A stretch of DNA of 58,903 bases, counting the filler. It is 8 parts of 8 records of this genome, joined end to end, with 100 filler letters (N's around TTAATTAATTAA, not from the genome) between each part and the next. Parts side by side here need not be neighbours in the genome. Positions count along the whole stretch, not along the records: positions 34,232 to 44,232 come from SRR31147125_816; 7 more parts are not named here. One strand, given 5' to 3'. Each line of letters begins with the position of its first letter. Within the stretch, counting starts at the first letter, position 1. A program made the position numbers and the translations under genes. The notes under the pieces are model-generated. The model was not told the DNA's origin and ran no database searches. It saw only the letters and a list, made by a program, of their open reading frames with translations. Shown in pieces: positions 1,136-44,332 of the stretch.

Positions 1136-1987
1136 ATGGCTTTTGTTAGTTCCAAGGAAATTATAAATAAAGCATGGCAGCAAAATTATGCAGTGCCAGC
1201 GTTTAATGTCGAAAATATGGAGATGGCCATGGCGGTTATAAAATCTGCTAATGAGCTTAATTCACCGGTTATTATTCAAACTACATCATCGACTATTAAG
1301 TATGCAACCACGGGAATATATTCTGCACTGGTTAAGTCTATAGCTAAGAATGTTGAAATACCTGTTGCACTCCATTTGGATCATGGAGTTAGTTACGAAA
1401 TTGTAAAGAATGCTATTGAAAACGGATACACATCTGTAATGATAGATGGCTCGAAGCTTCCTTTTGAAGAAAACATTCAGGTAACAAAAAAAGTTGTTGA
1501 ATATGCTAGATACAATAATGTACCAGTTGAAGGTGAATTGGGAAAAGTAGGAGGAAAGGAAGATGAACTTGAATCTGAAATTACAGAAAGTTATACAGAC
1601 CCTGAAGAAGCTTTAGAATTCACAGATAAGACAGGAGTAGACTTTTTAGCTATTGCAATAGGAACAGCACATGGTGTATATAAGAAAACTCCAAATATAA
1701 ACATTGATAAAGTAGATGAGCTTAAAAGAAAGCTAAAAGTTCCTTTGGTTTTACATGGAACATCAGGTATAGATGGTGAAATTGTCAAGGAATGTGTAAA
1801 AGCAGGAATATGCAAGGTCAATTATGCCACGGAACTTAGAATAGCATATACAGATGGAGTAAAAGAAGCATTAGAATTAAATAAAGAGATATTGGACCCT
1901 AAAACATATGGCAAAAATGGCATGAAAAAAGTAGAAGAAATAGTAAAGAAGAATATCGGATATTGCTATAGCGAAGGAAAAGCATAG
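1136..1987 (+). CDS. Class II ketose-bisphosphate aldolase (fructose/tagatose-1,6-bisphosphate aldolase family)
   Basis: Motifs 'AVPAFN', 'LHLDH', 'SVMIDGS', 'VEGELG', 'GTAHG', 'PLVLHG' and 'KVN'. Confidence 0.93.
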   Translation: MAFVSSKEIINKAWQQNYAVPAFNVENMEMAMAVIKSANELNSPVIIQTTSSTIKYATTGIYSALVKSIAKNVEIPVALHLDHGVSYEIVKNAIENGYTSVMIDGSKLPFEENIQVTKKVVEYARYNNVPVEGELGKVGGKEDELESEITESYTDPEEALEFTDKTGVDFLAIAIGTAHGVYKKTPNINIDKVDELKRKLKVPLVLHGTSGIDGEIVKECVKAGICKVNYATELRIAYTDGVKEALELNKEILDPKTYGKNGMKKVEEIVKKNIGYCYSEGKA

Positions 1988-2013
1988 CAGAATTATTAAT
2001 ACTGGAGAATAAT

Positions 2014-3516
2014 ATGGATTTATTACTGGGAATAGATATAGGGACATCTGCGTGCAAAGCAGTAGTTTTTAATAAAAATGGCGAAGCTATAGCATCGGCA
2101 AAAAAAGAATATGATGTATATTATAAAAATGAGAATTGGGCGGAACAAAATCCCAATGAATGGTGGACCGCTGTTATAGAATGTATTAGAGAAATATTAT
2201 TCAATAGCTCAATAGAGCCGAATCATATCAAAGCTATAGGTGTTGATGGGCAATCTTGGTCGGCGATACCGATAGATAAAGAAGGAAACGTTCTATATAA
2301 TACTCCAATTTGGATGGATACACGTTCTGCTCAAATATGTGATGATATTAAAGAGAAAATTGATGAAAATCAAATATTTAATCTTTGTGGTAATCTTTTT
2401 GAGCCAACTTATACAACTCCTAAAATATTATGGATTGCAAAGAATAAACCGGAAATTTATAAAAAAACATATAAAATACTTCAGTCTAATTCATTTATAG
2501 TTTATAGACTAACAAACATTATTACACAGGATATTTCTCAAGGATATGGACTTCATTTTTTTGATATGAAAAACGGTATTTGGGATAGTGAAATGTGCAA
2601 AAAACTTGGAATCGATATTAACTTAATGCCAACAAAAATAAGTAAATGTCATGAAATAGTTGGCTGTGTTACGGATGGGGCAACAAAACTTACAGGACTT
2701 ACTATAGGGACACCTGTTGTAGCAGGTGGATTGGATGCAGCATGCAGCACGTTAGGAGCTGGTGTAATCCATGAAGGACAAACTCAGGAACAAGGTGGAC
2801 AGGCTGGAGGAATGAGTATATGCCTTAATGAATGTAAAACCCATAAAAAATTAATTATGAGTCATCATGTTGTTCCAAATAGATGGCTTCTGCAGGGAGG
2901 AACGGTAGGCGGCGGTGGTGTACTGAAGTGGCTTAAAAACGAATTTTATAAATACTCTAAGAAAGATACTATTAATATAGACGAAGATATTTTTAATAAA
3001 ATGAATAATGATGCTGAAGCCGTATCTAAAGGTTGCGACGGAGTAGTGTTTCTGCCGTATATGGCAGGTGAAAGATCTCCTATTTGGGACAAAGAAGCAA
3101 AGGGTGTTTTTTTTGGATTGACTTTAAAAACAAAAGCACACTTTACAAGAGCATGTTTTGAAGGTGTAGCATATGCATTAAAGCATAATTTAGATACAGC
3201 AGAAGATTCAGGAGTATCTGCTGAAAAATTGCATGCTACAGGAGGTTCAGTGAATTCAATTCTCTGGACACAAATAAAAGCCGATGTTACAGGTAGAGAA
3301 ATTCTAGTAACGTCATCCGATAATTCAACTGCACTTGGTGCTGCTATTTTAGCAGGTGTAGGGGTGGGCATTTACAATAATTTTGAAGATGCCGTAAAAA
3401 AATGTGTACGAATTGAAAGAGAACATATTCCGAATTTGAACAATAAAAAATATTTAAGTAATTATGCTACTTACTTAAGTCTATATGACAATTTAAAAGA
3501 ATTAATGCATAAATAG
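2014..3516 (+). CDS. FGGY-family carbohydrate kinase (xylulokinase-like)
   Basis: 'GIDIGTS', 'WMDTRS', 'FLPYMAGERSP', 'EGVAY' and 'ALGAAILAG'. Confidence 0.92.
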   Translation: MDLLLGIDIGTSACKAVVFNKNGEAIASAKKEYDVYYKNENWAEQNPNEWWTAVIECIREILFNSSIEPNHIKAIGVDGQSWSAIPIDKEGNVLYNTPIWMDTRSAQICDDIKEKIDENQIFNLCGNLFEPTYTTPKILWIAKNKPEIYKKTYKILQSNSFIVYRLTNIITQDISQGYGLHFFDMKNGIWDSEMCKKLGIDINLMPTKISKCHEIVGCVTDGATKLTGLTIGTPVVAGGLDAACSTLGAGVIHEGQTQEQGGQAGGMSICLNECKTHKKLIMSHHVVPNRWLLQGGTVGGGGVLKWLKNEFYKYSKKDTINIDEDIFNKMNNDAEAVSKGCDGVVFLPYMAGERSPIWDKEAKGVFFGLTLKTKAHFTRACFEGVAYALKHNLDTAEDSGVSAEKLHATGGSVNSILWTQIKADVTGREILVTSSDNSTALGAAILAGVGVGIYNNFEDAVKKCVRIEREHIPNLNNKKYLSNYATYLSLYDNLKELMHK

Positions 3517-3536
3517 AATAATTAGAGGGAAAAAGA

Positions 3537-4583
3537 ATGAAAGCAGCAGTATTAATTGAAAAAAATAGAATCGAGTACTCAGAATATGAAACTCCTGAAA
3601 TTAAACCTAATCATGTGAAAATAAAGGTAAAAGTTTGTGGGATATGCGGATCTGATATTCCTCGTGTTTTGGGAGATGAGTCGCATTATTATCCAAATGT
3701 TTTAGGACATGAATTTTCGGGAGATGTAGTGGAAATTGGTGAAGGTGTGACTAAAATTAAAATTGGAGATAAAGTATCTGGTGTTCCTCTAAAGCCATGT
3801 ATGAAATGCGAAGATTGTCAAAAAGGTAATTATTCATTATGTAACAATTACAGCTTTATTGGTTCAAGAGAACAGGGTGCTTTTGCAGAATATATAGTTA
3901 TACCAGAAGAAAATGCAGTAGTTTTTGATAAGAACATTAAATATGAACAAGGAGCTCTTTTTGAGCCATCGACAGTTGCATTGCATGGAGTTTTTAATAA
4001 TAACTTTAAAGGCGGGTTTGATGCTGTGATATTAGGCTTCGGTAACATAGGTATTTTTACTGCACAATGGGTAAAGATACTAGGAGCAAGGAACGTAGTA
4101 GTAATCGATATAGATAATAAAAGACTCGAACTTGCAAATAAAATCGGATTCGAACATGCATATAATTCATTAAACTTAGACTTTAAAGAAAAAATAGAAT
4201 CTGTTGTGAGTAAAAAAGGATTTGAATATGTTTTTGAAACAGCAGGTGCGGCTGCTACTATGAACTTATCATTTGAACTTGCATCAAAAAAAGCAAATGT
4301 ATGCTTTATAGGCACACCGCACAGTAGTATAACTTTTTCCCAAAAGCAATGGGAATTAATGAACAGAAAAGAGTTCTTGCTTACAGGCTCTTGGATGTCG
4401 TATTCTGCACCGTTTCCGGGCAAGGAATGGAAAATGACCGCATATTATTTTGGTATTGGCAAATTAAAGTATTGTGAAGAAATGATATTTATGAAGTTTC
4501 CAATGTATGAATGTGATAAGGCATTTGAAATGTACAAGACTCCTAACAACGTAAAAGGCAAAATAGTATTAGTAAATGAATAA
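3537..4583 (+). CDS. Zn-dependent polyol dehydrogenase (galactitol-1-phosphate 5-dehydrogenase/sorbitol dehydrogenase-like, MDR family)
   Basis: 'CGICGSD', 'LGHEFSG', structural Zn site 'CMKCEDCQKGNYSLC', and Rossmann motif 'GFGNIG'. Confidence 0.9.
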   Translation: MKAAVLIEKNRIEYSEYETPEIKPNHVKIKVKVCGICGSDIPRVLGDESHYYPNVLGHEFSGDVVEIGEGVTKIKIGDKVSGVPLKPCMKCEDCQKGNYSLCNNYSFIGSREQGAFAEYIVIPEENAVVFDKNIKYEQGALFEPSTVALHGVFNNNFKGGFDAVILGFGNIGIFTAQWVKILGARNVVVIDIDNKRLELANKIGFEHAYNSLNLDFKEKIESVVSKKGFEYVFETAGAAATMNLSFELASKKANVCFIGTPHSSITFSQKQWELMNRKEFLLTGSWMSYSAPFPGKEWKMTAYYFGIGKLKYCEEMIFMKFPMYECDKAFEMYKTPNNVKGKIVLVNE

Positions 4584-4617
4584 ATAAAAAAATCATTTAA
4601 AGAAAAAGGAGAATAAA

Positions 4618-5646
4618 ATGCATAAAGATATTTTAAATAATGTTAATCCTAAAAGTGTTCCAAATAGGCTTTTATCAAATGGACTTGAAATGCCATGCAT
4701 GGGAATGGGGACATTCGGCTCTGACAGATTTACTCCTGATCAAGTAGCATCTGCAGTAAAGGGAGCGATTGATGTTGGATACAGGATGTTTGACTGCGCA
4801 TCAGTATATGGTAATGAGCATCTTATAGGAAAAGTTTTTGAAGAGGTGTTTAATACCGGCAAGATAAAAAGAGATGAATTATTTATTACTTCTAAAGTAT
4901 GGAATGATATGCACGGTGATGGAGATGTACTTATATCCCTTGCAAAAACCTTGAAAGATTTAAAATCAGATTATATTGATGCATATTTTGTTCACTGGCC
5001 ATTTCCGAATTATCATGCACCGGGATGTGATGGAGATTCAAGAAACCCAGAGTCTGTTCCATTTTGCGCAGAAAGGTTTATGAGCACTTGGAAGCAGATG
5101 GAGAGAATATATGAGCTAGGGCTTGCAAAAAGTATAGGAATGTCATCTATGACTATACCTAAGCTTGATGCGGTATTGCCATTATGCAAAATTAAACCGC
5201 ATGTTATAGAGATGGAATTACATCCTACTTTTCAGCAAAAAGAATTGTATGAATACTGTAAAGAACACAATATTCAGGTAATTGGATTTTGCCCTATCGG
5301 ATCACCTACAAGACCAGACAGAGACAAAACTGAGACTGATTTAGTAGATATAACAGAGCCTGTTGTTGTAGAAATTGCAAAAAATCATAATATGCATCCT
5401 GCAGTAGTTTGCCTTAAATGGGCAGTGAAGCATGGGCATACACCAATACCCTTTTCAATAAATGAAAATGAGTATCTGAGTAATTTAAAAAGCACTGTAG
5501 AAGATCCTCTGACAGATGAAGAAATGGAAAAGCTAGAAACTGTAGATGCTAATTGCAGGCTGATAAAAGGACAATAGGTATTCTTATGGGAAGGTGCAAA
5601 GGATTGGCATGATTTATGGGATGAGGACGGAAGTATAACTAAATAG
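4618..5646 (+). CDS. Aldo/keto reductase; an in-frame TAG at 5575-5577 precedes a further 22 codons
   Basis: 'FDCASVYGNE', 'FITSKVWN', 'YFVHWP' and 'EMELHP'. After the TAG the frame continues VFLWEGAKDWHDLWDEDGSITK* to 5646. Confidence 0.85.
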
Positions 5647-5688
5647 GGTTACAACCGAAAAAAATATTATATTAATTTAAGGTGAGAT

Positions 5689-6124
5689 ATGCTGAAAAAA
5701 ATACCAAAAAACATTTCTCCTGAATTATTAAAAGTTCTTATGGAGATGGGACATGGAGATGAAATAGTAATTGCAGATGGAAATTTTCCTTGTAATAAAT
5801 TTGGGAATAAAGTTATAAGAATGGACGGGAATAATACTACTTACTTATTGGAGTCAATACTATATTTATTACCAATTGATTCATATGTGGAAAACCCAGT
5901 AATTTTAATGGAAGTAGTAAAAGGAGATTCTGTAAAAACACCCATTTGGAACTATTATAAAAAAACAATACAAAATAGCGAAGAGGCAAGTAAATTTGAA
6001 AAAGGATTTTTACATATAAGATAGATTTAATTTTTATGAACGGGCTAAAAATGCTTATGCAATAATTGCTACCAGTGAAACGGCACTTTATGCTAATATA
6101 ATTTTGAAAAAAGGTGTCATTTGA
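5689..6124 (+). CDS. fucU: RbsD/FucU-family mutarotase, with a +1 frameshift near 6018
   Basis: '[15 protein letters not shown]' at the N-terminus. The conserved C-terminus '[34 protein letters not shown]' lies in the shifted frame and ends at TGA 6122-6124. Confidence 0.85.
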
Positions 6125-6477
6125 TTAGGTATTAGCTTAATCGACTATTATATATTAAAGTTGATTTGATGATTTTAATTTTAATATTAGGAAGTTAAAT
6201 TAAATAAGATTTTTGCTAATATTTAATATGTGGATTGGATGCACTATTCTGGATAGTTTCCTTTAGGATTTCTCGCAAGAAAAATTTTATATAAAGTTAG
6301 CAGATGAACGATTGTTAAATCATTGCAAATGATATAAAAATATGATACTAATATTTAAGCTGAAATAATCAGTACAAAAACTGAATTTAAATGTTTTGTA
6401 TAACATTTGTATAACATGTACCTGTTGCGGAGGGTGACATTAACTGCGATAGTTGTGACAACTGCGACAAAATGGGT

Positions 6478-6577
6478 NNNNNNNNNNNNNNNNNNNNNNN
6501 NNNNNNNNNNNNNNNNNNNNNTTAATTAATTAANNNNNNNNNNNNNNNNNNNNNNNNNNNNNNNNNNNNNNNNNNNN
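6478..6577. other. Artificial contig spacer
   Basis: N-run + TTAATTAATTAA (stops in all six frames) + N-run, exactly 100 bp. Confidence 0.99.
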
Positions 6578-7065
6578 TGCCAAAACTCCACCTTGATAAT
6601 TATCGGAGCATACCGATGGGATGTTCGCTGAAATTACTCGGTCAATAGATATCACAAATGATTCAACGTTGATATTCTCGCTAAGGTTTTGTGTATGGCT
6701 TGCTATAATCACACCAGCTACTTTATTGGCGTTTAGCATGTCAAAATATTCGAGCTCTTTTGTATCTCGTGGTTTGAGTTGCATAAAAGAAGTTTATACT
6801 TATTTTTTGAAGCGTAGTGTTCAACACAGTTAATTATTTTACTAAAAAAAGGATTGTTTGCTGACGGAACAATCAAACCAATAACTTTGCTCCTTTTCAT
6901 GGATAATGAACGTGCAATTTCGTTTGGTTGATAGTTTAGCTCTTTCATTGCTTTTCTAATATTATTTTTTGTTTTTTCGCTAACATATCCACGTTCATTA
7001 AGCATTCTTGACACAGTGGTTACTGTCACGCCGCTCAATCTAGCTACATCTTTAATTGTTGCCAT
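6578..7065 (-). CDS. LacI-family transcriptional regulator, frameshifted near 6760 and 3'-truncated
   Basis: HTH 'MATIKDVARLSGVTVTTVSRMLN' and 'LNYQPNEIARSL'. The second frame gives 'VISIDR...VCSDNYQGG'. Confidence 0.92.
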
Positions 7066-7162
7066 ATTTATCTCCTAAGCTCAAATAGTATACACAATTC
7101 GAAATAAATTCCATAAGTAAGCCATATATGTTCATGTACAATTTAACATTCATTTTGACATG

Positions 7163-7178
7163 TGTCAACTGTTAACAT
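7163..7178 (-). promoter_or_regulatory. Candidate LacI operator overlapping the lacI -35 (autoregulation)
   Basis: Minus strand ATGTTAACAGTTGACA matches ATGTTAACCGTTTATA at 13/16 and contains TTGACA. Confidence 0.55.
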
Positions 7179-7322
7179 AATTATTATAAAATGAACACTA
7201 AAATATAGAGAAAAATACATAAATAAGGGCATATAACCATAAATATCGTCTATATAATTAGCGATACTTAAGGAATTTTATTAATAAACAATCATGCAAT
7301 TATATAATATAAAGCTATATTG

Positions 7323-7338
7323 TATAAACGGTTAATAT
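7323..7338 (-). promoter_or_regulatory. Candidate LacI operator
   Basis: Minus strand ATATTAACCGTTTATA, 15/16 identical to the site at 10049. Confidence 0.6.
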
Positions 7339-7459
7339 ATAATTTTTATTTAATATGATTGCCTGATAGATTGTTTTTATTAGATTAGGGAATGCTTTGA
7401 TATGAAATCATGTGATGAACGACAATATTAATAGTTATTTGTGTCCATATTAAAATGTA

Positions 7460-7508
7460 TTGACAGAAATATCTAATAGTAATATACTAAATATGTTAAG
7501 CGGTTATA
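7460..7508 (+). promoter_or_regulatory. Sigma70/SigA promoter plus operator upstream of esterase 1
   Basis: TTGACA(7460)-17 bp-TATACT(7483), followed by ATGTTAAGCGGTTATA at 7493-7508. Confidence 0.7.
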
Positions 7509-7545
7509 ATAAATATATAATGTTTGAAAATAGTGAGGTTTACAA

Positions 7546-8319
7546 ATGGCACAAATTCATTGCAATTTTAATTCGTATACGTTAATGCACGGTGTGGACA
7601 TTATGATTACGCTTCCCAGTATTGCGGCCAGTGATTTAGGACCGGATGCAAAGCCAAGCCATAAAATTGATGCAAAATATCCAATACTATATTTATTGCA
7701 TGGATATGGCAATGATTATTTATGTTGGCATCGTCATACCTCAATGGAACGATACGCTGAAGAACGCAGAATTGCGGTTGTTACTTGCTCTGTAGAAAAT
7801 AAAGCTTATATGAATATTGAAGCTTTAGGAGAAATGTATTTTGATTTTGTGAAAAAAGAATTACCTGAGTTTATCTGTTCTAACTTTCCAATCTCTGAAA
7901 GATGGGAAGATACATATATTGCAGGTTTATCCATGGGAGGATACGGTGCATTGGCGCATGGGTTGGAGCATTCAGAATCATATAGAGCAATAGGAGCATT
8001 TTCACCAGCGATTTTTAAAAAAGGTATTTTTAAGAATGATATAATTAAAGCTTATGATTTATATGAGCTCCTTGAAAAAAATGAAAAAGAAAAGCAAACC
8101 ATTCCGGATTTATATTTATGCTGCGGTAAAGATGATTTTGTTTTTGATCCGGTAGAGGAATTTCAAAAAACTTTGCAGTCGAAAAATATAAAGCATACTT
8201 ATGATTCAGTAGAAGGATATGAACATGAATGGGCTTTTTGGGATATGGAACTTCCGCTTTTTTTAGATTGGCTTCCGCGCACAGATGTATATGCATCTAT
8301 GGAGCGAAGAAAGATGTAA
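7546..8319 (+). CDS. Alpha/beta-hydrolase esterase (acetyl esterase/tributyrin esterase-like)
   Basis: 'YPILYLLHG', nucleophile elbow 'IAGLSMGGYGA', 'CGKDD' and 'HEWAFWD'. Confidence 0.9.
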   Translation: MAQIHCNFNSYTLMHGVDIMITLPSIAASDLGPDAKPSHKIDAKYPILYLLHGYGNDYLCWHRHTSMERYAEERRIAVVTCSVENKAYMNIEALGEMYFDFVKKELPEFICSNFPISERWEDTYIAGLSMGGYGALAHGLEHSESYRAIGAFSPAIFKKGIFKNDIIKAYDLYELLEKNEKEKQTIPDLYLCCGKDDFVFDPVEEFQKTLQSKNIKHTYDSVEGYEHEWAFWDMELPLFLDWLPRTDVYASMERRKM

Positions 8320-8369
8320 TAAGAAATATTACAAGTGATACATAATTTATTTTGTGACACGTACTTTTC

Positions 8370-8414
8370 TTACCTCTACGGTTTTTAAACGTCATATTAA
8401 AATCGTAGAGGTAA
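8370..8414. terminator. Hairpin between the convergent esterase genes (probable bidirectional terminator)
   Basis: TTACCTCTACG...CGTAGAGGTAA inverted repeat, extended by a further AT-rich stem. Confidence 0.6.
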
Positions 8415-8512
8415 TATATGATATGCTTTTAATAGATGCAAATCTGTCATTACTTTAAACAATTTCAGCAAGTTCGTATTATGTAATAGTATACTTTAGT
8501 ACGAGGACTTAT

Positions 8513-9670
8513 TTATTTTTTCCATAACAAGGGTAGGAAATCTCTAATACACTCTCTCCATACTTTCCATTCGTGTGCGCCAGAATATTCTTTGCGTATC
8601 ATGTTTTTACATGTTTCTGTTGATAGTCCCTTTTCTTTAAGAATTTCGTCATCTTCATAAAATATATTGACAAATTGATCTGTTAGCCCCATAGCTCTGA
8701 AAAAAACATTAAAACTTTTTTCAAATTCAGGCTTATTATCAAGGAAGTTCAAATGTGCATTGGATGTATCTTTACTCATAAGATTTCGCATGAAACCACT
8801 GAATAACCCGACGTATGAGAACATATCGGGATGGTCTAGGGTAATCATACTAGTTTGCATGGATCCCATTGAAAGTCCTGCCATTGCGCGGTTTTCTTTA
8901 CCGGGGGCTACACGAAAGCGACTTTCGATATAGGGTATGCAGTCATTCAGCAATAAATTTTCGAAAGCACCGGCATCCAAATAACGCTCTCCTTCTGCAT
9001 TGGGTAGCATTACCATGCCGTTGTTCATTACTATAATGCATGGTGCTGCTTGGTTTGCATTCAGCAGATTATCCATTATAAAATTCACTTTTCCCTGCCA
9101 CACCCAGCACTTTTCATTTTCTCCATGCCCGTGTTGAAGATATAAAACAGGATATTTTTTCTGTGGAAAATTATCATATTCCGGTGGTGTGTATACTACG
9201 CATGCCTCATATTTTTTCGTGGTCTCAGAATAGAAATATTCATGGCGGACACTACCGTGAGGCGTGTTTTTGATTTCAAAAAAACTATCACTTTTTGCTG
9301 GAACATCCACATAGTTAATAGGGTGGCAAGAGCCGAAACCGATTGGTGCCATTTCATTCAGAACTTTACTGCCATCAACATAGAAAGAAATTGTTAGGAA
9401 TCCGTCAGGAGCATCTTTAATGCTCTTTTCCCACAGACCATTTTCTTTTTTATTCAGTTCATATTCTTTGTCAGGTAGAATAAGCACCTTAACATTTTTC
9501 GCATTTGGGGCATACATTGAAAAGAATATTTCGCCGTCTGCATTGACTCGTGCACCACAGGGAATTATATCTTTTGCTTTGCTATTTGGAGGAGCTGTTG
9601 GATTCATATTAACAGATATCTGAGTTCCAAAAGCGGTACTTGACTGTGTATAAACTTGGTTTCGATTCAT
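8513..9670 (-). CDS. Esterase with N-terminal E-set/CBM48-like domain (CE1-like)
   Basis: 'FSMYAPNAKNV', 'PHGSV', 'VYTPPEY', 'YPVLYLQHG', 'AMAGLSMG' and 'HEWKVWR'. Confidence 0.88.
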   Translation of the reverse strand: MNRNQVYTQSSTAFGTQISVNMNPTAPPNSKAKDIIPCGARVNADGEIFFSMYAPNAKNVKVLILPDKEYELNKKENGLWEKSIKDAPDGFLTISFYVDGSKVLNEMAPIGFGSCHPINYVDVPAKSDSFFEIKNTPHGSVRHEYFYSETTKKYEACVVYTPPEYDNFPQKKYPVLYLQHGHGENEKCWVWQGKVNFIMDNLLNANQAAPCIIVMNNGMVMLPNAEGERYLDAGAFENLLLNDCIPYIESRFRVAPGKENRAMAGLSMGSMQTSMITLDHPDMFSYVGLFSGFMRNLMSKDTSNAHLNFLDNKPEFEKSFNVFFRAMGLTDQFVNIFYEDDEILKEKGLSTETCKNMIRKEYSGAHEWKVWRECIRDFLPLLWKK

Positions 9671-9874
9671 GTTTTTCTCCTTGTATAAAAATGGTTATTG
9701 CTGAATTGCGAATTAAACAGGTATGAATTGTTGCTTCTTATGGTTATAACAATAGGTTAAATTACGCAATTCTAATTAAGTAATTGTTAGGAAATTAGGT
9801 CAATATTTATCGTATAAAACGAAAATATATATTTAAATTAAAAAATAATATAAAAGATATTTATACTTACAGAA

Positions 9875-9912
9875 ATAGTATCATGAAAAAAAATAAATGT
9901 CAAACGATTACA
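9875..9912 (-). promoter_or_regulatory. Promoter for esterase 2 with an overlapping candidate operator
   Basis: Minus strand TTGACA(9903-9898)-17 bp-TACTAT with an extended -10 TG. ATGTCAAACGATTACA at 9897-9912 is a 12/16 match to the operator consensus. Confidence 0.55.
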
Positions 9913-10009
9913 TATATAATAAACTTAATAAATATGGAATCGCTGTGCATATATCAAATATCACAATCAATTTAAGTGTTTTTAGAGTAAATGAACAAAA
10001 GAAAAGGTG

Positions 10010-10064
10010 TTGACACATATTATGAATGTGTTGTATAATGTTGAAAACATGTTAACCGTTTATA
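10010..10064 (+). promoter_or_regulatory. Promoter plus LacI-type operator upstream of the ABC operon
   Basis: TTGACA(10010)-18 bp-TATAAT(10034), followed by ATGTTAACCGTTTATA at 10049-10064. Confidence 0.7.
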
Positions 10065-10116
10065 CTAAAATTGAACTTTGGGTATGAACATAACTTATAC
10101 GAAGGAGGAAAAGGAT

Positions 10117-11649
10117 ATGACGAAAAGAAAATTATTATCAATTTTGATAGTGGGAACACTTTTAATGACAATGGTATTTGGAGTCGTTGGTTGTAAAACA
10201 GCTGATACAGACTCAACGCAGCCGGAGACAGAAGATATTTCTGAAGAAGGAACTAGCGAGGAAATTCCTACAATTAAAATGACAACATTATGTTTTACGA
10301 CGCCTACCGACACGGAAATGGTGGCAGAGGCCATTAGTGAGATTACAAGGGAAAAGATTGGAGTCAATATTGAACTTATTCCAGTAGAAATCGGAAACTG
10401 GAGTTCTGTAATGAGTTTAATGCTGTCAAGTGGTGATAACCAAGTTGATGTATATATCGGTGGATATTGGTCAACTTTGGGTGCGATTGTTAGCAATGGA
10501 CAAGCAATTGCATTGGATGATTATATTGATGAATATGCACCAAATTTAGAGGAAGCATTGACTACGGAAGTATTTAATTGCGGCACAATAGATGGAGAGC
10601 ACTATGGTATTGCGCGCTATTTAGATTTTGGTACAGGTGTAGTTTATAATTTACGTAAGGATATCGCAGATGAATACGGAGTATCAAATGGCGATAGTAT
10701 GACTTTGGATGAATTAACTGAACTTTTTAGAACTATAAGCGCAGATTATCCAGATACTCCATTAGCTGGTTCAACAAGCACTGGTCTTAATGCAGGTGGA
10801 GGAGTACTTGAATCAAGTGTAGACAAATTAGGGGACTCAAATTATTTAGGAGTTTTGATTGGTGATAGCACTACAGTTGTTAACTATTATGAATCAGATG
10901 AATACTTACAAATGGTCGAATATTTCAAACAGTGGAGAGAAATCGGTGTTTATATGTCTGATCCGTTGAACAATACGGAGGCAGCTATGGATTATCTTGT
11001 AAGCGGTAAATGCCTTGGCAATTTTGCCAGCCATTTTGATGCTGAATTAAATGGTATCTGGGCAACCGAGAATTATGGAACAGAAATGATATCAATTTCT
11101 GTTATGGAAGCAGTTGCGCAGACTCCAGGCATGTATTTCTGTGTTGCACCTGACTGTCAGTATCCGGAAAAAGCTGTTGCATGGATAGATCTTATGGCTT
11201 CTGATTCAGAAATAGCTAATCTTCTTGCTAATGGTATTGAAGGTGTACACTATTCTGTTGATGATGAAGGCACAGCACACTATGCAGAAGGCGTGGATGC
11301 TTCAAATGCCGGATGGACCTTGGGACTTTCTTGGACGACGCTAAATTCAACTATTTCGTATCCCTTTGAATATCCTGCAACTTATTATGAAAAGATGGTA
11401 GCTAGCAATAATGACTCTGAAAAGTCAGCAGGCTTTGGATTTGAGTTTGATGCAACAAATGTTGCCAATGAACTTGCGGCATGTACAAATGTTTGCAGTC
11501 AATACAGAGCAGCGATTGAGTGTGCAGCTACAGATAACATGGATGACATGGTGGTAACATTCCAACAGGCGCTAAAAGACGCAGGCATAGATGCGATTAT
11601 TGCTGAAAAGCAAGCACAATTGGATGAGTTTATTGCATCAAACGAATAA
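10117..11649 (+). CDS. Carbohydrate ABC transporter substrate-binding lipoprotein (DUF3502-type)
   Basis: RBS AAGGAGG precedes ATG 10117. Signal peptide with lipobox VVGC; 'GIEGVHY', 'GFEFD' and 'LKDAGIDAIIAEKQAQLD'. Confidence 0.9.
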   Translation: MTKRKLLSILIVGTLLMTMVFGVVGCKTADTDSTQPETEDISEEGTSEEIPTIKMTTLCFTTPTDTEMVAEAISEITREKIGVNIELIPVEIGNWSSVMSLMLSSGDNQVDVYIGGYWSTLGAIVSNGQAIALDDYIDEYAPNLEEALTTEVFNCGTIDGEHYGIARYLDFGTGVVYNLRKDIADEYGVSNGDSMTLDELTELFRTISADYPDTPLAGSTSTGLNAGGGVLESSVDKLGDSNYLGVLIGDSTTVVNYYESDEYLQMVEYFKQWREIGVYMSDPLNNTEAAMDYLVSGKCLGNFASHFDAELNGIWATENYGTEMISISVMEAVAQTPGMYFCVAPDCQYPEKAVAWIDLMASDSEIANLLANGIEGVHYSVDDEGTAHYAEGVDASNAGWTLGLSWTTLNSTISYPFEYPATYYEKMVASNNDSEKSAGFGFEFDATNVANELAACTNVCSQYRAAIECAATDNMDDMVVTFQQALKDAGIDAIIAEKQAQLDEFIASNE

Positions 11650-11690
11650 AGATTAAATTGAGAAGATAGAACAAGGAGAAATAGCGAGTT

Positions 11691-12614
11691 ATGGTTAAGG
11701 GTAGTAAAAGAAAGAAAATAAATGTTAGAAACTTACCGCTATATTTAATGATGATACCGGGAATTGCATACATACTCATCAATAATTATATTCCGATGTT
11801 AGGTTTAGTCATTGCATTTAAAAAGGTTAATTATAGCCTTGGAATTTTAAATAGTCCATGGGTTGGATTTGATAACTTTGAGTTTTTATTCAAAACTAAA
11901 GATGCATTCATTATTTTCAGAAATACAGTAGGATATAACTTGCTATTTCTCATATTAGGTACATTTTTTTCTATTGTTATTGCCATTATGCTTAGTGAAA
12001 TTAGAATTAAGAGAAGACTTAGACTCTATCAAACAAGTATCTTGGTTCCGTTTCTATTATCAAGTGTATTACTTGCGTATGTGGTATTTGCATTTTTAAG
12101 TTCAGATAGTGGCTTGATTAACAACACTTTAGAAAAACTGGGTATTGAGCCGATTTCATGGTATTCAGAATCTGAGTATTGGCCGTATATTCTTACGTCA
12201 GTATATTTGTGGAAATCAATTGGCTATACCTCAATCATCTATTTTGCAACTATTATTGGAATAGATAAATCTTATTATGAAGCAGCTGTAGTGGATGGAG
12301 CAACGATATGGCAGCAAATTCGGTATATTACATTGGCTCATTTAAAACCTACAATCATTACATTAGTATTATTGCATATTGGACGAATGCTTTATTCAGA
12401 TTTTGGTCTGTTTTATCAAGTTCCAATGAATAATGGACTTTTATACAATGCTACAAATACGATTGATACTTATGTGTATCGTGGATTACTGCAATTGAAT
12501 GATATAGGTCGCTCTTCTGCAGCGGGATTTATACAATCTGTTTTAGGATTCGTTCTTGTATTAGGGGCTAATGCTCTTACCAGAAGAATAGATAGAAACA
12601 GTGCATTATTCTGA
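11691..12614 (+). CDS. Carbohydrate ABC transporter permease (LplB-like)
   Basis: 'SPWVGFDNF', EAA loop 'YYEAAVVDGA', 'TIDTYVYR', and multiple TM helices. Confidence 0.93.
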   Translation: MVKGSKRKKINVRNLPLYLMMIPGIAYILINNYIPMLGLVIAFKKVNYSLGILNSPWVGFDNFEFLFKTKDAFIIFRNTVGYNLLFLILGTFFSIVIAIMLSEIRIKRRLRLYQTSILVPFLLSSVLLAYVVFAFLSSDSGLINNTLEKLGIEPISWYSESEYWPYILTSVYLWKSIGYTSIIYFATIIGIDKSYYEAAVVDGATIWQQIRYITLAHLKPTIITLVLLHIGRMLYSDFGLFYQVPMNNGLLYNATNTIDTYVYRGLLQLNDIGRSSAAGFIQSVLGFVLVLGANALTRRIDRNSALF

Positions 12615-37692: not shown

Positions 37693-38569
37693 CCTATTCT
37701 CCCTTTTTTGAGTTCAACTTGCTAAAATAAATTTCAAGGATATTATTTTTTCAGAAAATGAAAACCCCGGACAAAGGAATCGGGTAAAATTGTCCCAAAT
37801 TCATTTGTCTCATTTGAAAATATAAATAATTTGCAAACAAAATGCATGGATTTTTATAAAAGGTTTGTGGATTTTTGGGAGTAGGTAATAATAGGATGAA
37901 ATATTATAATTGTTATCTCTCCCGGCTTTCAGTGTGGGGCCCAATCAGAAAAACGGCCTGTCGCCTATCAGACCCGTTGTCGGTACGCTTTTAAGTAAAA
38001 GGCAAATTCTTTGGAGTGAATTGACTGTGTCAATTCCTTCTCGCACGCTCTTTGCTGGAAAAGTTTTTTCAAACAAAAGGTGCAACAGCAACGGGTCGAT
38101 ATTTTGCGTTATTTTTGTGAAAGTTTAATTCACTCAATTTTATGCAGGTTCACTGCAGCAAAATGACTTTTCGGCATCCTTTCCAATCTTTAACGGATAT
38201 TTCCGACAGTGCATCTCCCCGACATGCGAAACTATCCTATTTTTTAGCCAATCCATCATCTACCAAGCCAAACCACTCATCAAGTATCACCTTTTATAAA
38301 AGTCTACCTATTCCTGAAAGTTGCTAAAAACTTTACGCCGAAAAACAAGTACGCAAAAGATTCGCTATGCGGGTATTAAACATATAATTTCAAACCTGTT
38401 TTGTGATACCATCAATTTTAAATACCAACCAAAAAGAAACGAGAACCGGACCACAACACTAGAATTCACTCGCCCTCGTTGTTTCTACAAAACATCTCTC
38501 AGATATGTTTCGTAGTTGTAAACCGGAAAGGTATCCTGCACAAGGATTATATGATTTACAGAGGACCAT

Positions 38570-40949
38570 ATGAAGTATAAGAACAAAAAGTATATTGTTT
38601 TCCCATTTGTATTTGGGGTCATTTACTGGATATTGGAATCCATTCTTGATTATTTTTACTCAGGTACAGCCACACTCGATAATAATTTATTCTCTACTAT
38701 ATCAGACTATCATTTTTATGCACGCACCACTGTGATATTATGTATTTTTATATTTGGAGTCATTCTATCAAAAGTACTAAAGAAATATGAGGTTGCGGAA
38801 CAGGAATTGAGAGAACAAAAACAACGGTATACTCTGGCCACTGAGACAGGAAAAGTTAGTGTTTGGGACTATAATATAAAAACGAAGGATCTCTATCTCG
38901 ATCCAAACTTAAAATCATCACTCGGTTATGCAGATCATGAAATTCAAAACAACCTGGATGCCTGGATGAAGCTGGTGCATCCTGAGGATCATCAAAAAAT
39001 ACAAAAAGATATCAGAGAACATATAGACGGAAAAATATCAAAGTTTGAAACGATCCACAGAATGGTGCATAAAAATGGCAGTACACGCCGATTTTTTGTA
39101 CGTGGGCAGGCTTTACATGATGATAACGGTCAGCCATATCGCCTGATAGGAACGGACACAGATATTACTCAGTACCATATAATGGCTCAAAAATTACGCG
39201 CGAGTGAGGAAAAATTTCGTGCCTTGACCGAACATTCTCAAGACATTATCATGCGATTTGACCGACAACACAGACACCTGTATGTAAATTCAGCTATTTC
39301 GATACTTTTTGATCTTGAGCCAAAGGATTTTATTGGTAAAACGCATGAGGAATTAGGATTTTCAGCTGACATGTGCCATTATTGGAAACAAAATCTACAA
39401 AAAGTTTTTGATACAGGTCTCCCTGTTGAAGAAGAATTTGAAATTGAAGGTAAAAACGGACCGATTGTCTTTGATTGGAGGCTAGTTCCCGAATTCAACG
39501 CTAACAACATAGTTGAAACAGTTATGACCACGGCACGTGATATCACCTTGCGTAAAAAAGCCGAAAAAAACTTAAAGAGCGTAATAAATACATTCAGACA
39601 ATCCTGGACAACCTGCCTATTGGCCTGGCTGTATATAGAATCAACGACAAAAAGGTGGCGTATCTTAATAATAAATTTGAAGATATATGTGGTTGGCCTC
39701 ACAATAGTTTTTTGACCAGGGATGATTTCTACAATAAAGTCTTTCAGGATGTTCATTATCGGAAAAAAGTAAGAGATAGAATAGTCGCTGATCTCAACAA
39801 TCCTGATTCTGCAAATTTGAAATGGGGAAATATAACAATTAGAACAAAAACCGGAAAAAGAAAATCATTACTATTAGTAATATTCCTCTCCTGGAGCAAA
39901 ATTTAATGATATCAACCATCAGGAATGTCACTAAAAAAAGAAAAATTGAAAATGCCCTGAAAGATAGTGAGCAAAAATTCAGAACCATAGCAGAACAAAG
40001 CTTCGACATCATCTTTGCATTTGATGTAGATGGTAATCTATCCTTTGTGTCTTCTTCAGCCGAGAGAGTTCTAAGTTACAGCGTAGATGAACTAATAGTT
40101 CATAATGTTCTCGATTACGCTATCAAGCATTCTTCTCAAAAAATCACTCATTCTTTCAACGATATCATCAATGGTAACACGGTTGAGAATCTGGAGGTAC
40201 CTCTAGTTACGAATAAAGGCATTGTTGTCAGCATGGACGTCAATGCCAGTCCTCTTTATAGAAACGGGAAAATTGTCGGTGCCCTGGCTATCGCTAGAGA
40301 CGTGACTGATCGTAGACGAACCGAAAAACAACTCAAACAATCTCTTCTTGAAAAAGAGGTACTTTTAAAAGAGATTCACCATCGGGTTAAAAATAATCTT
40401 CAAGTCATAACCAGTCTGATAAACCTTCAATCAAATCTCATCCACGACAAGCAGGCGTTGAACGCCTTCAAGGAAACTAAAGTTCGTGTCAAATCGATGG
40501 CACTTGTTCACGAAAAATTATATCAGTCCAACGATTATACTCAAATTGATTTTAATGACTATATCCACTCGCTTGTGGGTAATTTGTTTCAAATATATGC
40601 AATTACAGGCAATATATCCCTGGAAGTGAATGCCCAAAATACCTCTTTCAATATCAATAAAGCTGTGCCATGTGGACTTTTAATCAATGAACTCTTATCT
40701 AATGCTATCAAGCACGCATTTCCTAATGGCCAACAGGGTAAAATAACTATAAATCTGCATTTGATAAATAACAAATTTGAATTAATCGTAAAAGACAATG
40801 GTGTTGGGCTGCCGGAACACATTGATATAAAGAACAATGATTCATTAGGATTACAACTGGTTAGTATTCTTACGGAACAATTGGAAGGGCAAATAGAACT
40901 TTCAAGAAAAACCGGCACAACTTTTAAAATCCAGTTCGATAATTTTTAG
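38570..40949 (+). CDS. Membrane-anchored multi-PAS sensor histidine kinase (HisKA_2 type); two homopolymer frameshifts (~39567, ~39860); about 793 aa when joined
   Basis: Two N-terminal TM helices; PAS/PAC motifs ('VHPEDH', 'DIT', 'ARDVTDR'); H-box 'EIHHRVKNNLQ'; 'NELLSNAIKHAF', 'DNGVG' and 'SLGL'. Confidence 0.9.
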
Positions 40950-41340
40950 ATATAATTGTTATCAACGCTTCCAATACTCCTTAAATCAAGTATACTGTTA
41001 ATCAAGGTTCATCATTTTACCCCTTTTTGCTATAGATACACCATTTGAAGTAACGCCCCTCCCCTGAATTCCCGAAACGAGCACTCGGCATGACACCCTC
41101 TTTTTTCGAAGGCAATATGACATTTACACAAATGTAATTAGTTCAAACACCTAAATCGTTCGCAAAAAAAACGAGTGTCACTCACTCAAGCAATTCTCTC
41201 TGTCTAATTCATGCTTTCATAATTCCCTCTCATTTTTCATAAAACTTTTGACACGACCATCTCAGCCGAAACAACTCATCCTTTAGCTGTTTTCACAATG
41301 TAACAATTTTCAAATAGTATAAAAGGCTATGCAATCTAAT

Positions 41341-41370
41341 AAAAAAAGCCCTATCCTCTGACAGGGCTTT
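41341..41370 (-). terminator. Intrinsic terminator of the sigma54 transcript
   Basis: Minus strand AAAGCCCTGTC-AGAG-GATAGGGCTTTTTTT. One pair is G-U on the minus strand but an A-C mismatch on the plus strand, which favours the minus orientation. Confidence 0.75.
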
Positions 41371-41417
41371 CTTTGTTGCTTCACAAGGTGCTATGCTCTG
41401 GCTGCAAACAATGAGTG

Positions 41418-41456
41418 CTAATCACTAAATAGAATTGGGGGAAAGGATTTATACAT
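41418..41456 (-). CDS. Possible micropeptide MYKSFPPILFSD
   Basis: AAAGGGGG (SD-like) lies 9 nt upstream of ATG 41456; stop TAG at 41420-41418. Confidence 0.3.
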   Translation of the reverse strand: MYKSFPPILFSD

Positions 41457-41485
41457 GTTACGATGCCCCCTTTGTTCAGATTTTA

Positions 41486-41501
41486 TGCAAACCATATGCC
41501 A
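41486..41501 (-). promoter_or_regulatory. Sigma54 (RpoN) -24/-12 promoter
   Basis: Minus strand TGGCATATGGTTTGCA; the GG and GC dinucleotides have the canonical 12-bp offset. Confidence 0.75.
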
Positions 41502-41682
41502 CAGAGATATCAACGACCAAATATATGTTTATATTTCATTTGCACTACCAACAAAAAAGCATTTTTTACAACATTTAACCACCAATTTGAAACGGCAGTA
41601 ACAAATTTGTCAACCTGCTAAAAATAAAAATAATCTCACTTGGTAATTTTAAATAAACTTTAAAAATAATTTGTTAACTGTA

Positions 41683-41711
41683 TTGACATTCAAAATTTTA
41701 TTTTTTAGATT
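41683..41711 (+). promoter_or_regulatory. Sigma70-type promoter for the peptide operon
   Basis: TTGACA(41683)-17 bp-TAGATT(41706). Confidence 0.6.
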
Positions 41712-41942
41712 ATCAAACTAAAAAAATAGTACTGCACCAGGAACTTTACGCATTTAGTCGCTAACAATAAAGCGGGGAGGAAATCAACGACTTTACATCT
41801 ATGACAACAATTTGTCAGGCAACTTTTTAGGATCTGCTAAACTTCCTGGGATCAGTGCATTAAAGCAGCAGCCAGCATCCCTCTGTAATCTGGCCACCTC
41901 GAATACGGATCATGTCAACTCTTCATTATAAAGGAGTATGAC

Positions 41943-42185
41943 ATGAAAAAAGCAATCGTATTTATTTTGATGGGTGGTATTTACATCCTGTTGGCTATTG
42001 GAGCATCATGGGCTAACAATTCTGGAACAGTCGATGATTTCGTTAATTTTTTAGGATTACAATCTAATTCAGTACTATCTGATAATTCAGGTGGTGATCA
42101 GGGACCTTTAAAAGGGACGGCACCTTCAAATTTACCGATTCCGTCACCCCCGACACCACCACCAAATGTAATTGTCTCGGAATAA
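41943..42185 (+). CDS. Small secreted protein/prepeptide (80 aa) with Pro-rich C-terminus
   Basis: RBS AAGGAG 6 nt upstream; Sec-type signal MKKAIVFILMGGIYILLAIGASWA; tail 'PSNLPIPSPPTPPPNVIVSE'. Confidence 0.75.
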   Translation: MKKAIVFILMGGIYILLAIGASWANNSGTVDDFVNFLGLQSNSVLSDNSGGDQGPLKGTAPSNLPIPSPPTPPPNVIVSE

Positions 42186-42272
42186 TTTTCACACATATGT
42201 TTTTATTGTTGATGTTATCAAGTACAAGTTTTAAATATTTTATAGTAGGCATGGTCTGCTATTCGAGGTGAT

Positions 42273-43355
42273 ATGAAGATGGGCAGATATAATTTTGCGA
42301 TTCTTAAAAAAATCGCTAACCTGTGGTTGCTTTTCAATGTAGTCATGATTATTGTATCATATCTACCTCATTGGCCTATGCCCTATATCAGCTGGATGAA
42401 TTTATCACTTTATTTTCTCGCGTTCATAAGTACGATCTTTATTGCAAAGGCGGAAAAATATAATAGAGATACATTAATTCCGCTCGCAATTCTTTTCTTT
42501 CTTTACGCGGTTCCATCCGTATTTCTTATTCTAATAGGAAAAAACTTTAGCTTTGGTAGCGATACCTTATCCTGGTTAACTTTCCGCTACTATTATCTGA
42601 TTATACTTTTTTTCTTTGCATATAGTATTTTATATTATGCTGCAAAAAATGCACTTCAACCTGGCATACCCATTTTGCTCAACGCGGCAACATTTATCTT
42701 TGTTGCCGCTGTCTTTTTTGTTCATTTTCATGTGCTTATCTTTAATCCCTCTGTACCGCATTATAATGAAATTTTTATTTCTAAAAAATTTACATACTAT
42801 ATCTTACCGCTTTTTTCTGTTTTTCTTTACGGAGTCCTGAATCCATTTTTAAAACCGAAACACGGTGAATATACCCATGCCATTATGGCTATTTTAGCTT
42901 TTTTAAGCCTGAGAGAATTTGCCATCACTCTGTCAGAAATGAAAAATGTTTTTTTCTTTGGAACGGATCAATACTTTTTAGCATTCACTTTAATCATTCT
43001 AAACTTTTTCCTGTTTAAAAAACTTAATTTTGTTTATTCTACAGCCGGACAAATCTACACGAAAATTCTTTATAATGATCTTCAAATTCCCAACCTAAAA
43101 TTAGAAAGCAGAGAAAAAGGACGCTTGTCTAAATTTGCGTTGTTTGTCTATTTTATCTATTTAAAACGAGCTCTGTTAATCCCGTTATCTTTTATAATGT
43201 TATTTTTTATTAAATATATGGAACCCCCATTAATTGTAAGTCTCAATTTAATTTTTATTGGATTGATGCTTTTTATAATCATCCTGTTCATGATTTATAC
43301 TTTTAATCGAAAACAAAAAAAAGATGGTTATATAATTTCCAATTTTGATCATTAA
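42273..43355 (+). CDS. Polytopic membrane protein of unknown function (about 10 hydrophobic segments)
   Basis: RBS GAGGTG; a 360-aa ORF dominated by hydrophobic helices with no recognisable catalytic motif. Confidence 0.75.
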   Translation: MKMGRYNFAILKKIANLWLLFNVVMIIVSYLPHWPMPYISWMNLSLYFLAFISTIFIAKAEKYNRDTLIPLAILFFLYAVPSVFLILIGKNFSFGSDTLSWLTFRYYYLIILFFFAYSILYYAAKNALQPGIPILLNAATFIFVAAVFFVHFHVLIFNPSVPHYNEIFISKKFTYYILPLFSVFLYGVLNPFLKPKHGEYTHAIMAILAFLSLREFAITLSEMKNVFFFGTDQYFLAFTLIILNFFLFKKLNFVYSTAGQIYTKILYNDLQIPNLKLESREKGRLSKFALFVYFIYLKRALLIPLSFIMLFFIKYMEPPLIVSLNLIFIGLMLFIIILFMIYTFNRKQKKDGYIISNFDH

Positions 43356-43383
43356 TTTAAGGGATATGTTGAGGTGAGGTGTT

Positions 43384-44232
43384 ATGGTCAGTTTATCATT
43401 AAATGAGTCAAAATTATTAGGCAACAGCCCGGAAATTGAACGAGTTCGTAAATCCATTCGAGCTTTTTCAAAAATCAGGGATAATGTGCTTATACTAGGT
43501 GATGTCGGTAGCGGTCGCACCTTTACCGCTACAAGTATCCATCGTTTGGGAAATACCCAAAATCTTCCTTTTATTACCATTCCTTGTGGTGCCATCGGTG
43601 ATACTATTGACAAGGAACACATTTTAGGGGGCTCAGATAAAGAGCAACAAAAAAACGCGGAACTCTTTAAAGCGGGAAAAGGTACGATCTATCTTCAGGA
43701 TGTGGATCGCTTACACCCGGATCTGCAGGATAGGCTCTATAATTTGATTACAACCTATTCTCCTGATCATGGAAACGGTAATAAAATGCTGGCTTCCCGA
43801 ATAATTGCTTCTGCTGAACCCTCTTTGGAAGAAATGGCACGAAAAAGAAAATATAATTTCGCACTTTACCAGGAACTATCCAAAGCCCGGATTAACGTAC
43901 CCTCTATTCAGAACAGACGACAGGATATCATTATCATTTTCACCCATTTTATTGAATCCTATTGCGAAGAATTTGGCAAAAGCATTCCAACCATATCCTA
44001 TGAGATTTTTGAAGAGATCATTGATTACGATTGGCCTGGAAATGTGGAAGAAATAAAAAATTGTGTCCGAAATATGATTATCCTCTCTCCTGAGGGTGAA
44101 TTATCCGCCGAATTTCTACCATTCCATGTCCAGCGAAATCCTTTGGAAGCTCTCACAGTAAAGGACCTGCCTTCCGCTATATCTGAAGTAGAACGTTTTC
44201 TTATTCGTCATGCTCTGGCTCGTTTTGAGGGG
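43384..44232 (+). CDS. Sigma54-interaction-domain (bEBP-like) AAA+ regulator with degenerate motifs, 3'-truncated
   Basis: 'LLGNSPEI', 'VLILGDVGSGRT', 'PFITIPC', 'GTIYLQDV', 'RIIASA', 'DWPGNVEE' and the start of a Fis-HTH 'ERFLIRHALARFEG'. There is no GAFTGA and no receiver domain. Confidence 0.85.
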
Positions 44233-44332
44233 NNNNNNNNNNNNNNNNNNNNNNNNNNNNNNNNNNNNNNNNNNNNTTAATTAATTAANNNNNNNNNNNN
44301 NNNNNNNNNNNNNNNNNNNNNNNNNNNNNNNN
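44233..44332. other. Artificial contig spacer
   Basis: N-run + TTAATTAATTAA + N-run. Confidence 0.99.

Follow-up and report, generated by a model that had tools for sequence, protein, structure and literature searches.

Small RNAs driven by sigma-54 are well known in Proteobacteria. The Qrr RNAs are about 100 nt long, act by base pairing and need Hfq, while the proteobacterial CrcZ/CrcY (CbrB-RpoN), GlmY (GlrR-RpoN) and NrsZ (NtrC-RpoN) are encoded beside the two-component systems that control them. The sRNA biology of Bacteroidota works without Hfq and is poorly charted. GibS of Bacteroides thetaiotaomicron is a stand-alone intergenic sRNA with narrow conservation. A full-text search found no paper on a sigma-54-dependent sRNA in Bacteroidota or Bacteroides; supplements may list such promoters.

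We analysed a stretch of 58,903 nt (the window) with a G+C content of 36.6%, which encodes a fused CcoN-CcoO oxidase, a GH97 glycosidase and a TraG-like protein. Since the oxidase shares 83% identity with its counterpart in an uncultured Prolixibacteraceae genome and about 70% with those of other Bacteroidales, the organism was assigned to Bacteroidota. Seven pairs of 44-base N blocks occur in the window, the blocks of a pair lying 12 bases apart (e.g. 44233-44276 and 44289-44332). The minus strand of a 993-nt gene-free gap carries a candidate sRNA gene, a promoter-to-terminator unit of about 135 bases, whose parts are as follows:

41486-41501, minus strand: sigma-54-type -24/-12 promoter motif TGGCATATGGTTTGCA, the only exact TGGCA-N6-TTGCW match in the window
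41341-41475, minus strand: predicted transcript of about 135 nt, its start placed near 41475 from the position of the -12 element
41437-41470, minus strand: 5' stem of GGGGG (41470-41466) and CCCCC (41441-41437), enclosing a 24-nt loop
41437-41448, minus strand: C/U-rich stretch AUCCUUUCCCCC, as read from the sequence
41418-41456, minus strand: 12-codon ORF MYKSFPPILFSD plus stop, with the ATG at 41456 and the stop at 41420-41418
41406-41428, minus strand: variable linker (RNA nt 48-70), 13 nt shorter in the relative described below
41385-41395, minus strand: CAUAGCACCUU, the best local complement to the ribosome-binding site (RBS) and start codon of gene 43384 (not significant)
41341-41374, minus strand: intrinsic terminator, with an extended stem at 41374-41341, a G+C core at 41367-41348 and U7 at 41347-41341

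The promoter motif, GGGGG, CCCCC, the C/U-rich stretch, the ATG ORF and the hairpin with its U7 tail were each found on the minus strand where an earlier sequence-only reading of this DNA had placed them. The terminator core consists of GCCCTGTC/AGAG/GATAGGGC at 41367-41348, followed by T7 at 41347-41341, and the 24-nt loop of the 5' stem contains AUG and AAAUCCUUU.

The gap is bounded on one side by a convergent PAS/HisKA_2 histidine-kinase gene, which ends at 40949, and on the other side by a divergent module of three genes:

Gene 41943, divergent module: 80-residue secreted protein
Gene 42273, divergent module: multi-pass membrane protein with no Pfam family
Gene 43384, divergent module: protein with a sigma-54-interaction AAA+ domain

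No minus-strand gene lies downstream of the terminator, where the next gene is the convergent kinase gene. This excludes a leader or riboswitch and makes a stand-alone small transcript the simplest reading. The kinase gene itself is split in the window. A near-identical contig from run X1 has one extra A after 39563 and another after 39854, both in A runs, and with both of these the ORFs 38570-39715, 39655-39906 and 39906-40949 become one frame of about 794 codons with no linking stops. The split is, therefore, probably a homopolymer assembly error, or else a variable homopolymer.

From this layout, we infer that RNA polymerase would start near 41475, most likely at the sigma-54-type motif at 41501-41486 and under the control of an enhancer-binding activator encoded elsewhere, and would stop at the hairpin and U7 of 41374-41341, yielding an RNA of about 135 nt. 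This RNA would be composed of a conserved 5' domain (nt 1-47) carrying the GGGGG/CCCCC stem and the C/U-rich stretch, then a variable linker at nt 48-70, and lastly a conserved 3' domain with the terminator, and it would act by base pairing with at least one mRNA through its pyrimidine-rich single-stranded parts. The chances that 41341-41501 is an independent minus-strand sRNA gene with a promoter of the sigma-54 type appear about even. That it encodes an independent small RNA, a SigA-driven variant included, we consider fairly probable.

The unit was found in a single relative, a syntenic contig from one public sample (runs X2-X4) that spans 38503-43400 and whose flanking genes are 88-94% identical to those of the window. 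Its aligned pieces, in window coordinates, are:

38503-40007: 174 differences
40327-40962: 59 differences over 636 nt
41333-41504: 16 substitutions and 14 gap letters over 172 nt (the conserved island)
41643-43400: 113 differences over 1758 nt

Within the 993-nt gap, the relative aligns solely at 41333-41504 and 41643-41942. The 370 nt at 40963-41332 are replaced by 301 unalignable letters, and the 138 nt at 41505-41642 by 141. The ends of the island, approximate as those of a local alignment are, agree within 8 and 3 nt with the limits of the unit as set a priori (41341-41501). The block reaches 41504 and so spans the -24/-12 motif, as a whole block rather than at the level of its individual GG and GC. 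With 16 substitutions in about 159 aligned columns, the block has changed to a degree similar to the coding flanks (59/636 and 113/1758). The promoter-to-terminator unit delimited by the sequence-only reading is, thus, a discrete conserved element, coinciding with the block and with both flanks replaced. In this one relative, it is a stand-alone intergenic unit with diverged flanks and no conserved ORF, a pattern expected of a functional unit bounded by a promoter and a terminator. Since the unit was kept while its flanks drifted, it probably represents a genuine small regulatory RNA gene of narrow distribution, and, judging from the alignment, 41333-41504 is very likely a conserved functional element.

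The contig from run X1, near-identical to the window and perhaps its source, was not counted as independent evidence; it shows no differences in the island and so confirms its letters. Substitutions in the kinase gene were considered as a gauge of the neutral rate and found unusable: among the 40 of 350 differences listed, the 35 in the kinase gene fell 17/6/12 at codon positions 1/2/3. A second contig from run X1, equal in depth (34.5) to the contig that matches the window, aligns to 52 nt of the gap (41203-41254) with seven differences, which points to a short repeat at another place in this genome; the window itself contains no further copy of the stretch.

The terminator is the part of the unit with the clearest fold. 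On the minus strand, a G+C-rich stem-loop directly precedes the U7 tract and folds at -20.6 kcal/mol (z -5.3), an energy that none of 200 shuffles equalled. A scan for terminator-like sites returned 14 on both strands of the window, among which the 41341-41374 site ranked second by energy; a separate consensus terminator scan omitted the 41367-41341 hairpin despite its strong fold. The observation that the G-U pair forms on the minus strand only was borne out, as the G-U becomes an A-C mismatch on the plus strand, where the hairpin is weaker (-16.1 kcal/mol, z -4.6). No structure other than the terminator exceeded the shuffles when the whole RNA and the 5' stem were folded. The 135-nt RNA reached -34.7 kcal/mol (z -1.84), with 11 of 200 shuffles as low. 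The pairing of GGGGG with CCCCC claimed in the sequence-only reading stands as far as its probability is concerned (0.94-0.97), but its energy (-7.8, z -0.15) was equalled or bettered by 83 of 200 shuffles. The minus strand has another hairpin at 41188-41172, which was rejected as a part of the unit because its fold is weak (-5.7 to -7 kcal/mol, z -0.15) and the DNA around it lacks conservation in the relative.

Because the hairpin folds on both strands, bidirectional termination is possible, though the strand asymmetry is real. The island could, then, be a bidirectional terminator serving the convergent kinase gene, joined to conserved protein-binding DNA, with a promoter match that arose by chance. 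The plus-strand fold with its T-rich tail is good enough for that role, the interval from the kinase stop at 40949 to the hairpin showed no further plus-strand terminator, and the -24/-12 motif taken alone is at chance level. However, the conservation runs 130 nt past the hairpin in the plus-strand downstream direction and ends at the promoter motif, the 370 nt that separate the hairpin from the kinase gene lack conservation, and the perfect U7 tail and the G-U pair belong to the minus strand only. We regard this explanation as unlikely, while placing it ahead of the others considered below.

An independent small RNA gene also requires a promoter. The sigma-54 consensus is TGGCAC-N5-TTGCW, and TGGCATATGGTTTGCA agrees with it at 10 of the 11 specified positions, with its GG and GC 10 nt apart, as sigma-54 demands. 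By itself, the motif is within chance level: the window contains one exact TGGCA-N6-TTGCW where 0.47 would be expected, at least one turns up in 36 of 100 shuffles, and tolerating one mismatch yields 12 matches for an expectation of 10.2. The 3.6-Mb genome of the closest reference contains a stricter -24/-12 pattern seven times, against three times for a reversed control. As five of the seven exact matches in that genome fall inside ORFs, the motif alone is a poor predictor. The combination of parts is less expected, with an estimated 0.013 chance motifs per window lying 60-300 nt upstream of any of the 14 terminator-like sites. An inverted-repeat search near the motif revealed no convincing upstream repeats that could serve as activator sites.

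The clade itself appears equipped for such promoters. RpoN (PF04552) scored above the cut-off in five of five related genomes, and TGGCAY-N6-TG was present upstream of groES in all five relatives, with the same spacing as in TGGCATATGGTTTGCA (in the closest relative it reads TGGCATAGTATCTGCT). In Flavobacterium psychrophilum, a typical -24/-12 motif has been mapped upstream of groES-groEL, lon and dnaK (PMC9723704). Taken together, these observations indicate that the clade uses promoters of this type, and sigma-54 dependence of the predicted RNA is plausible.

No activator bearing GAFTGA was found in the window, where the only protein with a sigma-54-interaction domain, the product of gene 43384, lacks this motif. 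This protein (43384-44232; 4140-5069 in L092, a metagenome locus with an orthologous module) has lost the GAFTGA loop and has no receiver domain. Its Walker A motif reads GSGRT, with lysine replaced by arginine, and its Walker B motif reads QD, without the DE. Lacking GAFTGA and with degenerate Walker motifs, it cannot be the activator, which may be encoded elsewhere. The degenerate features are common to the 56%-identical L092 ortholog, which has kept a Fis-type HTH; the HTH is readable only there because a pair of N blocks hides the 3' end of the activator-like gene in the window. VpsR, an atypical member of the family that works with sigma-70, was the second-best match of the protein among solved structures.

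The degenerate activator-like gene always lies behind the genes for the secreted small protein and the multi-pass membrane protein, and this three-gene module is portable, occurring in differing genomic contexts. A sigma-70-type promoter precedes it both in the window (TTGACA-17-TAGATT, 41684-41712, plus strand) and in L092 (TTGACA-17-TATATT, 2385-2413, plus strand). Such sequences are unusual for Bacteroidota, whose housekeeping promoters use TAnnTTTG, and the module may be foreign in origin or read by another sigma factor. An inverted repeat, UCAUGUCA ... UGACAUGA, with an 8-bp stem, spans the start of the secreted-protein gene in four of four loci, so that the start codon is part of the stem while the loop holds the GGAG site:

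41909-41950 in the window: start-site inverted repeat
about 400-448 in L091: start-site inverted repeat
about 2641-2687 in L092: start-site inverted repeat
about 321-375 in L093: start-site inverted repeat

This repeat is invariant, though the orthologs of the next gene are only 47-52% identical, and it could act as a hairpin that controls translation or as an operator bound by the HTH protein of the module.

The same sRNA might instead be made by the housekeeping SigA of Bacteroidota, the sigma-54 match being coincidental and the start lying a few bases upstream, at about 41481. The -33 element of SigA promoters is TTTG, with a spacing of 19-21 nt, and an arrangement of this kind overlaps the -12 element: TTTG at 41521-41518, then 21 nt, then TATGGTTTG at 41496-41488. 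These elements are read upstream of the predicted start, there is no functional activator nearby, and TAnnTTTG is the consensus of the -7 box in flavobacteria according to PMC9723704. On the other hand, the -7 box exceeds the consensus by one base (TAnnnTTTG), the putative -33 element falls outside the conserved block ending at 41504, and the sigma-54 motif matches at 10 of 11 positions with exact spacing. The two promoters predict nearly identical 5' ends, and transcription by SigA seems to us somewhat less likely than the terminator explanation.

The candidate small RNA gene, whichever promoter would drive it, has a narrow distribution. Searches with the island DNA in the five closest named relatives gave only short matches, mostly to the terminator, and did not find the unit. 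Across 151 genomes related to the closest reference, the matches were of 22-50 nt only and again mostly in the terminator part; in one locus (L081), a 22-nt match lacked the TGGCA element. The island had no paralogue in the window or in the recovered loci examined, and no match in plasmids or phages. Nor did any Rfam 15 family reach its gathering score anywhere in the window, the outcome that the sequence-only reading had named as support for novelty, and no tRNA or tmRNA was detected there.

Homologous operons were recovered through the membrane protein of the module. As a single query, it retrieved no relatives from genome contigs, metagenome contigs or 101 genomes related to one reference genome. 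Twelve homologues were present in a protein collection, one of them 94% identical and the rest 28-58%, and an alignment of these 12 recovered four metagenome loci (L091-L094). The gap upstream of the module is complete in L092 alone: L091 and L093 break off about 430 and 360 nt before the small gene, and L094 contains no upstream DNA. The comparison of sequences upstream of homologous operons, proposed in the sequence-only reading, could accordingly be made at L092, where the unit is absent: upstream of the orthologous module there is neither a -24/-12 motif nor a minus-strand terminator. The motif was not found upstream of the module in L091-L093 either, with the gap complete only in L092. 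The flanks of the L092 module, with Memo, PAP2 and Lon-like genes, differ from those in the window. The absence of the unit at L092 shows that it is not part of the portable module and is specific to the lineage of the window, and we regard it as a probable lineage-restricted small RNA.

A more ambitious reading assigns targets to the RNA. Its two anti-Shine-Dalgarno-like stretches, UCCUUUCCCCC and CACCUU, would selectively silence genes that bear Shine-Dalgarno (SD) sites, such as those of the adjacent three-gene module with its GAGGTG and AAGGAG sites, and the RNA would be the first sigma-54-dependent trans-acting sRNA described in Bacteroidota, to our knowledge a phylum without Hfq. We scored windowed duplexes against 41 translation-start regions of the window and, for the three genes of the operon, compared them with 250 dinucleotide shuffles of the RNA; full-length duplex folding was discarded, as it produced unrealistically long duplexes. 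The pairing of CAUAGCACCUU with GAGGUGUUAUG at gene 43384 reached -20.1 kcal/mol, with 20 of 250 shuffles as good, and the best of the three neighbouring translation-start regions was matched by 36 of 250. The possible match suggested in the sequence-only reading, between UCCUUU and the AAAGGAG of the divergent gene 41943, was at chance level, 140 of 250 shuffles pairing at least as well. None of the three neighbouring starts surpassed the shuffles, and no complementarity beyond chance was found among the 41 local translation-start regions. We consider this silencing scheme doubtful, more so than transcription by SigA.

The sequence-only reading had offered a base-pairing sRNA, a micropeptide mRNA or both; the discrete sRNA-like unit is conserved, while the micropeptide and the proposed local pairing were not upheld. 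In the relative, 3 nt are deleted at 41406, 1 at 41413, 5 at 41415, 2 at 41422 and 1 each at 41425 and 41427, so that the 23-nt stretch 41406-41428 is 13 nt shorter. Four of the deleted nucleotides lie within codons 10-12 of the MYKSFPPILFSD ORF and others in its stop codon, so neither the C-terminus nor the length is kept, and a conserved micropeptide at 41418-41456 is unlikely. The indels at the end of the ORF fit a non-coding RNA with a variable linker. The GGGGG lies 9 nt ahead of the ATG at 41456, and by a loose criterion 18 of the 41 gene starts in the window are preceded by SD-like motifs, so SD-led translation is possible and the peptide reading is weakened rather than excluded. Strong GGAG-type sites precede many genes (window 1136-12614 and others) and cluster in a sugar-kinase/ABC-transporter region, with ccoNO among the genes that have none; SD usage is mixed inside this one Bacteroidota window. 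A role of the unit as mRNA of the 12-residue peptide MYKSFPPILFSD, or as an RNA of dual function, with a GGGGG RBS masked by the CCCCC inside the ORF, is very unlikely: the RBS spacing, the use of SD-led initiation and the pair probability of the masking stem (0.94-0.97) speak for it, but the relative, in which codons 10-12 are short of 4 nt and the stop is partly deleted, has kept neither frame nor C-terminus, and a 12-codon ORF from a single sequence is indistinguishable from chance.

How does the predicted small RNA compare with described ones? Among Rfam families, the best sub-threshold match was MicC (RF00121), in which only the terminator hairpin and U tail of the unit align; this assignment was rejected, with 27.9 bits against a gathering score of 90 and a nearly equal match on the opposite strand (25.7 bits). 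Rfp18 of Flavobacterium psychrophilum (PMC9723704) belongs to the same phylum and, like the unit, is stand-alone, intergenic and narrowly conserved. No similarity of the unit to Rfp18 or GibS was found, and the accessible part of PMC9723704 does not link these RNAs to the sigma-54 motif.

The closest parallels in design are the sigma-54-driven RNAs of Proteobacteria. The Qrr sRNAs of Vibrio resemble the unit in being short RNAs, each with a -24/-12 promoter of its own and an intrinsic terminator, encoded between genes and close to signalling genes, and Qrr1-5 are described as dependent on LuxO and sigma-54. They differ in several respects: the Qrr genes adjoin the gene of a functional activator, whereas the activator-like neighbour of the unit lacks GAFTGA; the Qrr RNAs depend on Hfq, which the phylum of the unit is not known to have; and the unit matches no Rfam family in sequence or structure at gathering score. 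CrcZ/CrcY, GlmY and NrsZ share with it the proximity to signalling genes, here a PAS histidine-kinase gene directly downstream and convergent. However, they are larger, and for the most part they work by sequestering proteins as decoys with the help of repeated motifs, which the unit does not contain, and they lie beside their own control system, whereas no cognate activator was found in the window. The immediate value of the unit is modest, as it is confined to two close relatives. If confirmed, it would provide a tightly signal-gated riboregulator in Bacteroidota and, if real, would be a further example of the design seen in Qrr, GlmY, CrcZ and NrsZ, a small RNA driven by sigma-54 and encoded near signalling genes.
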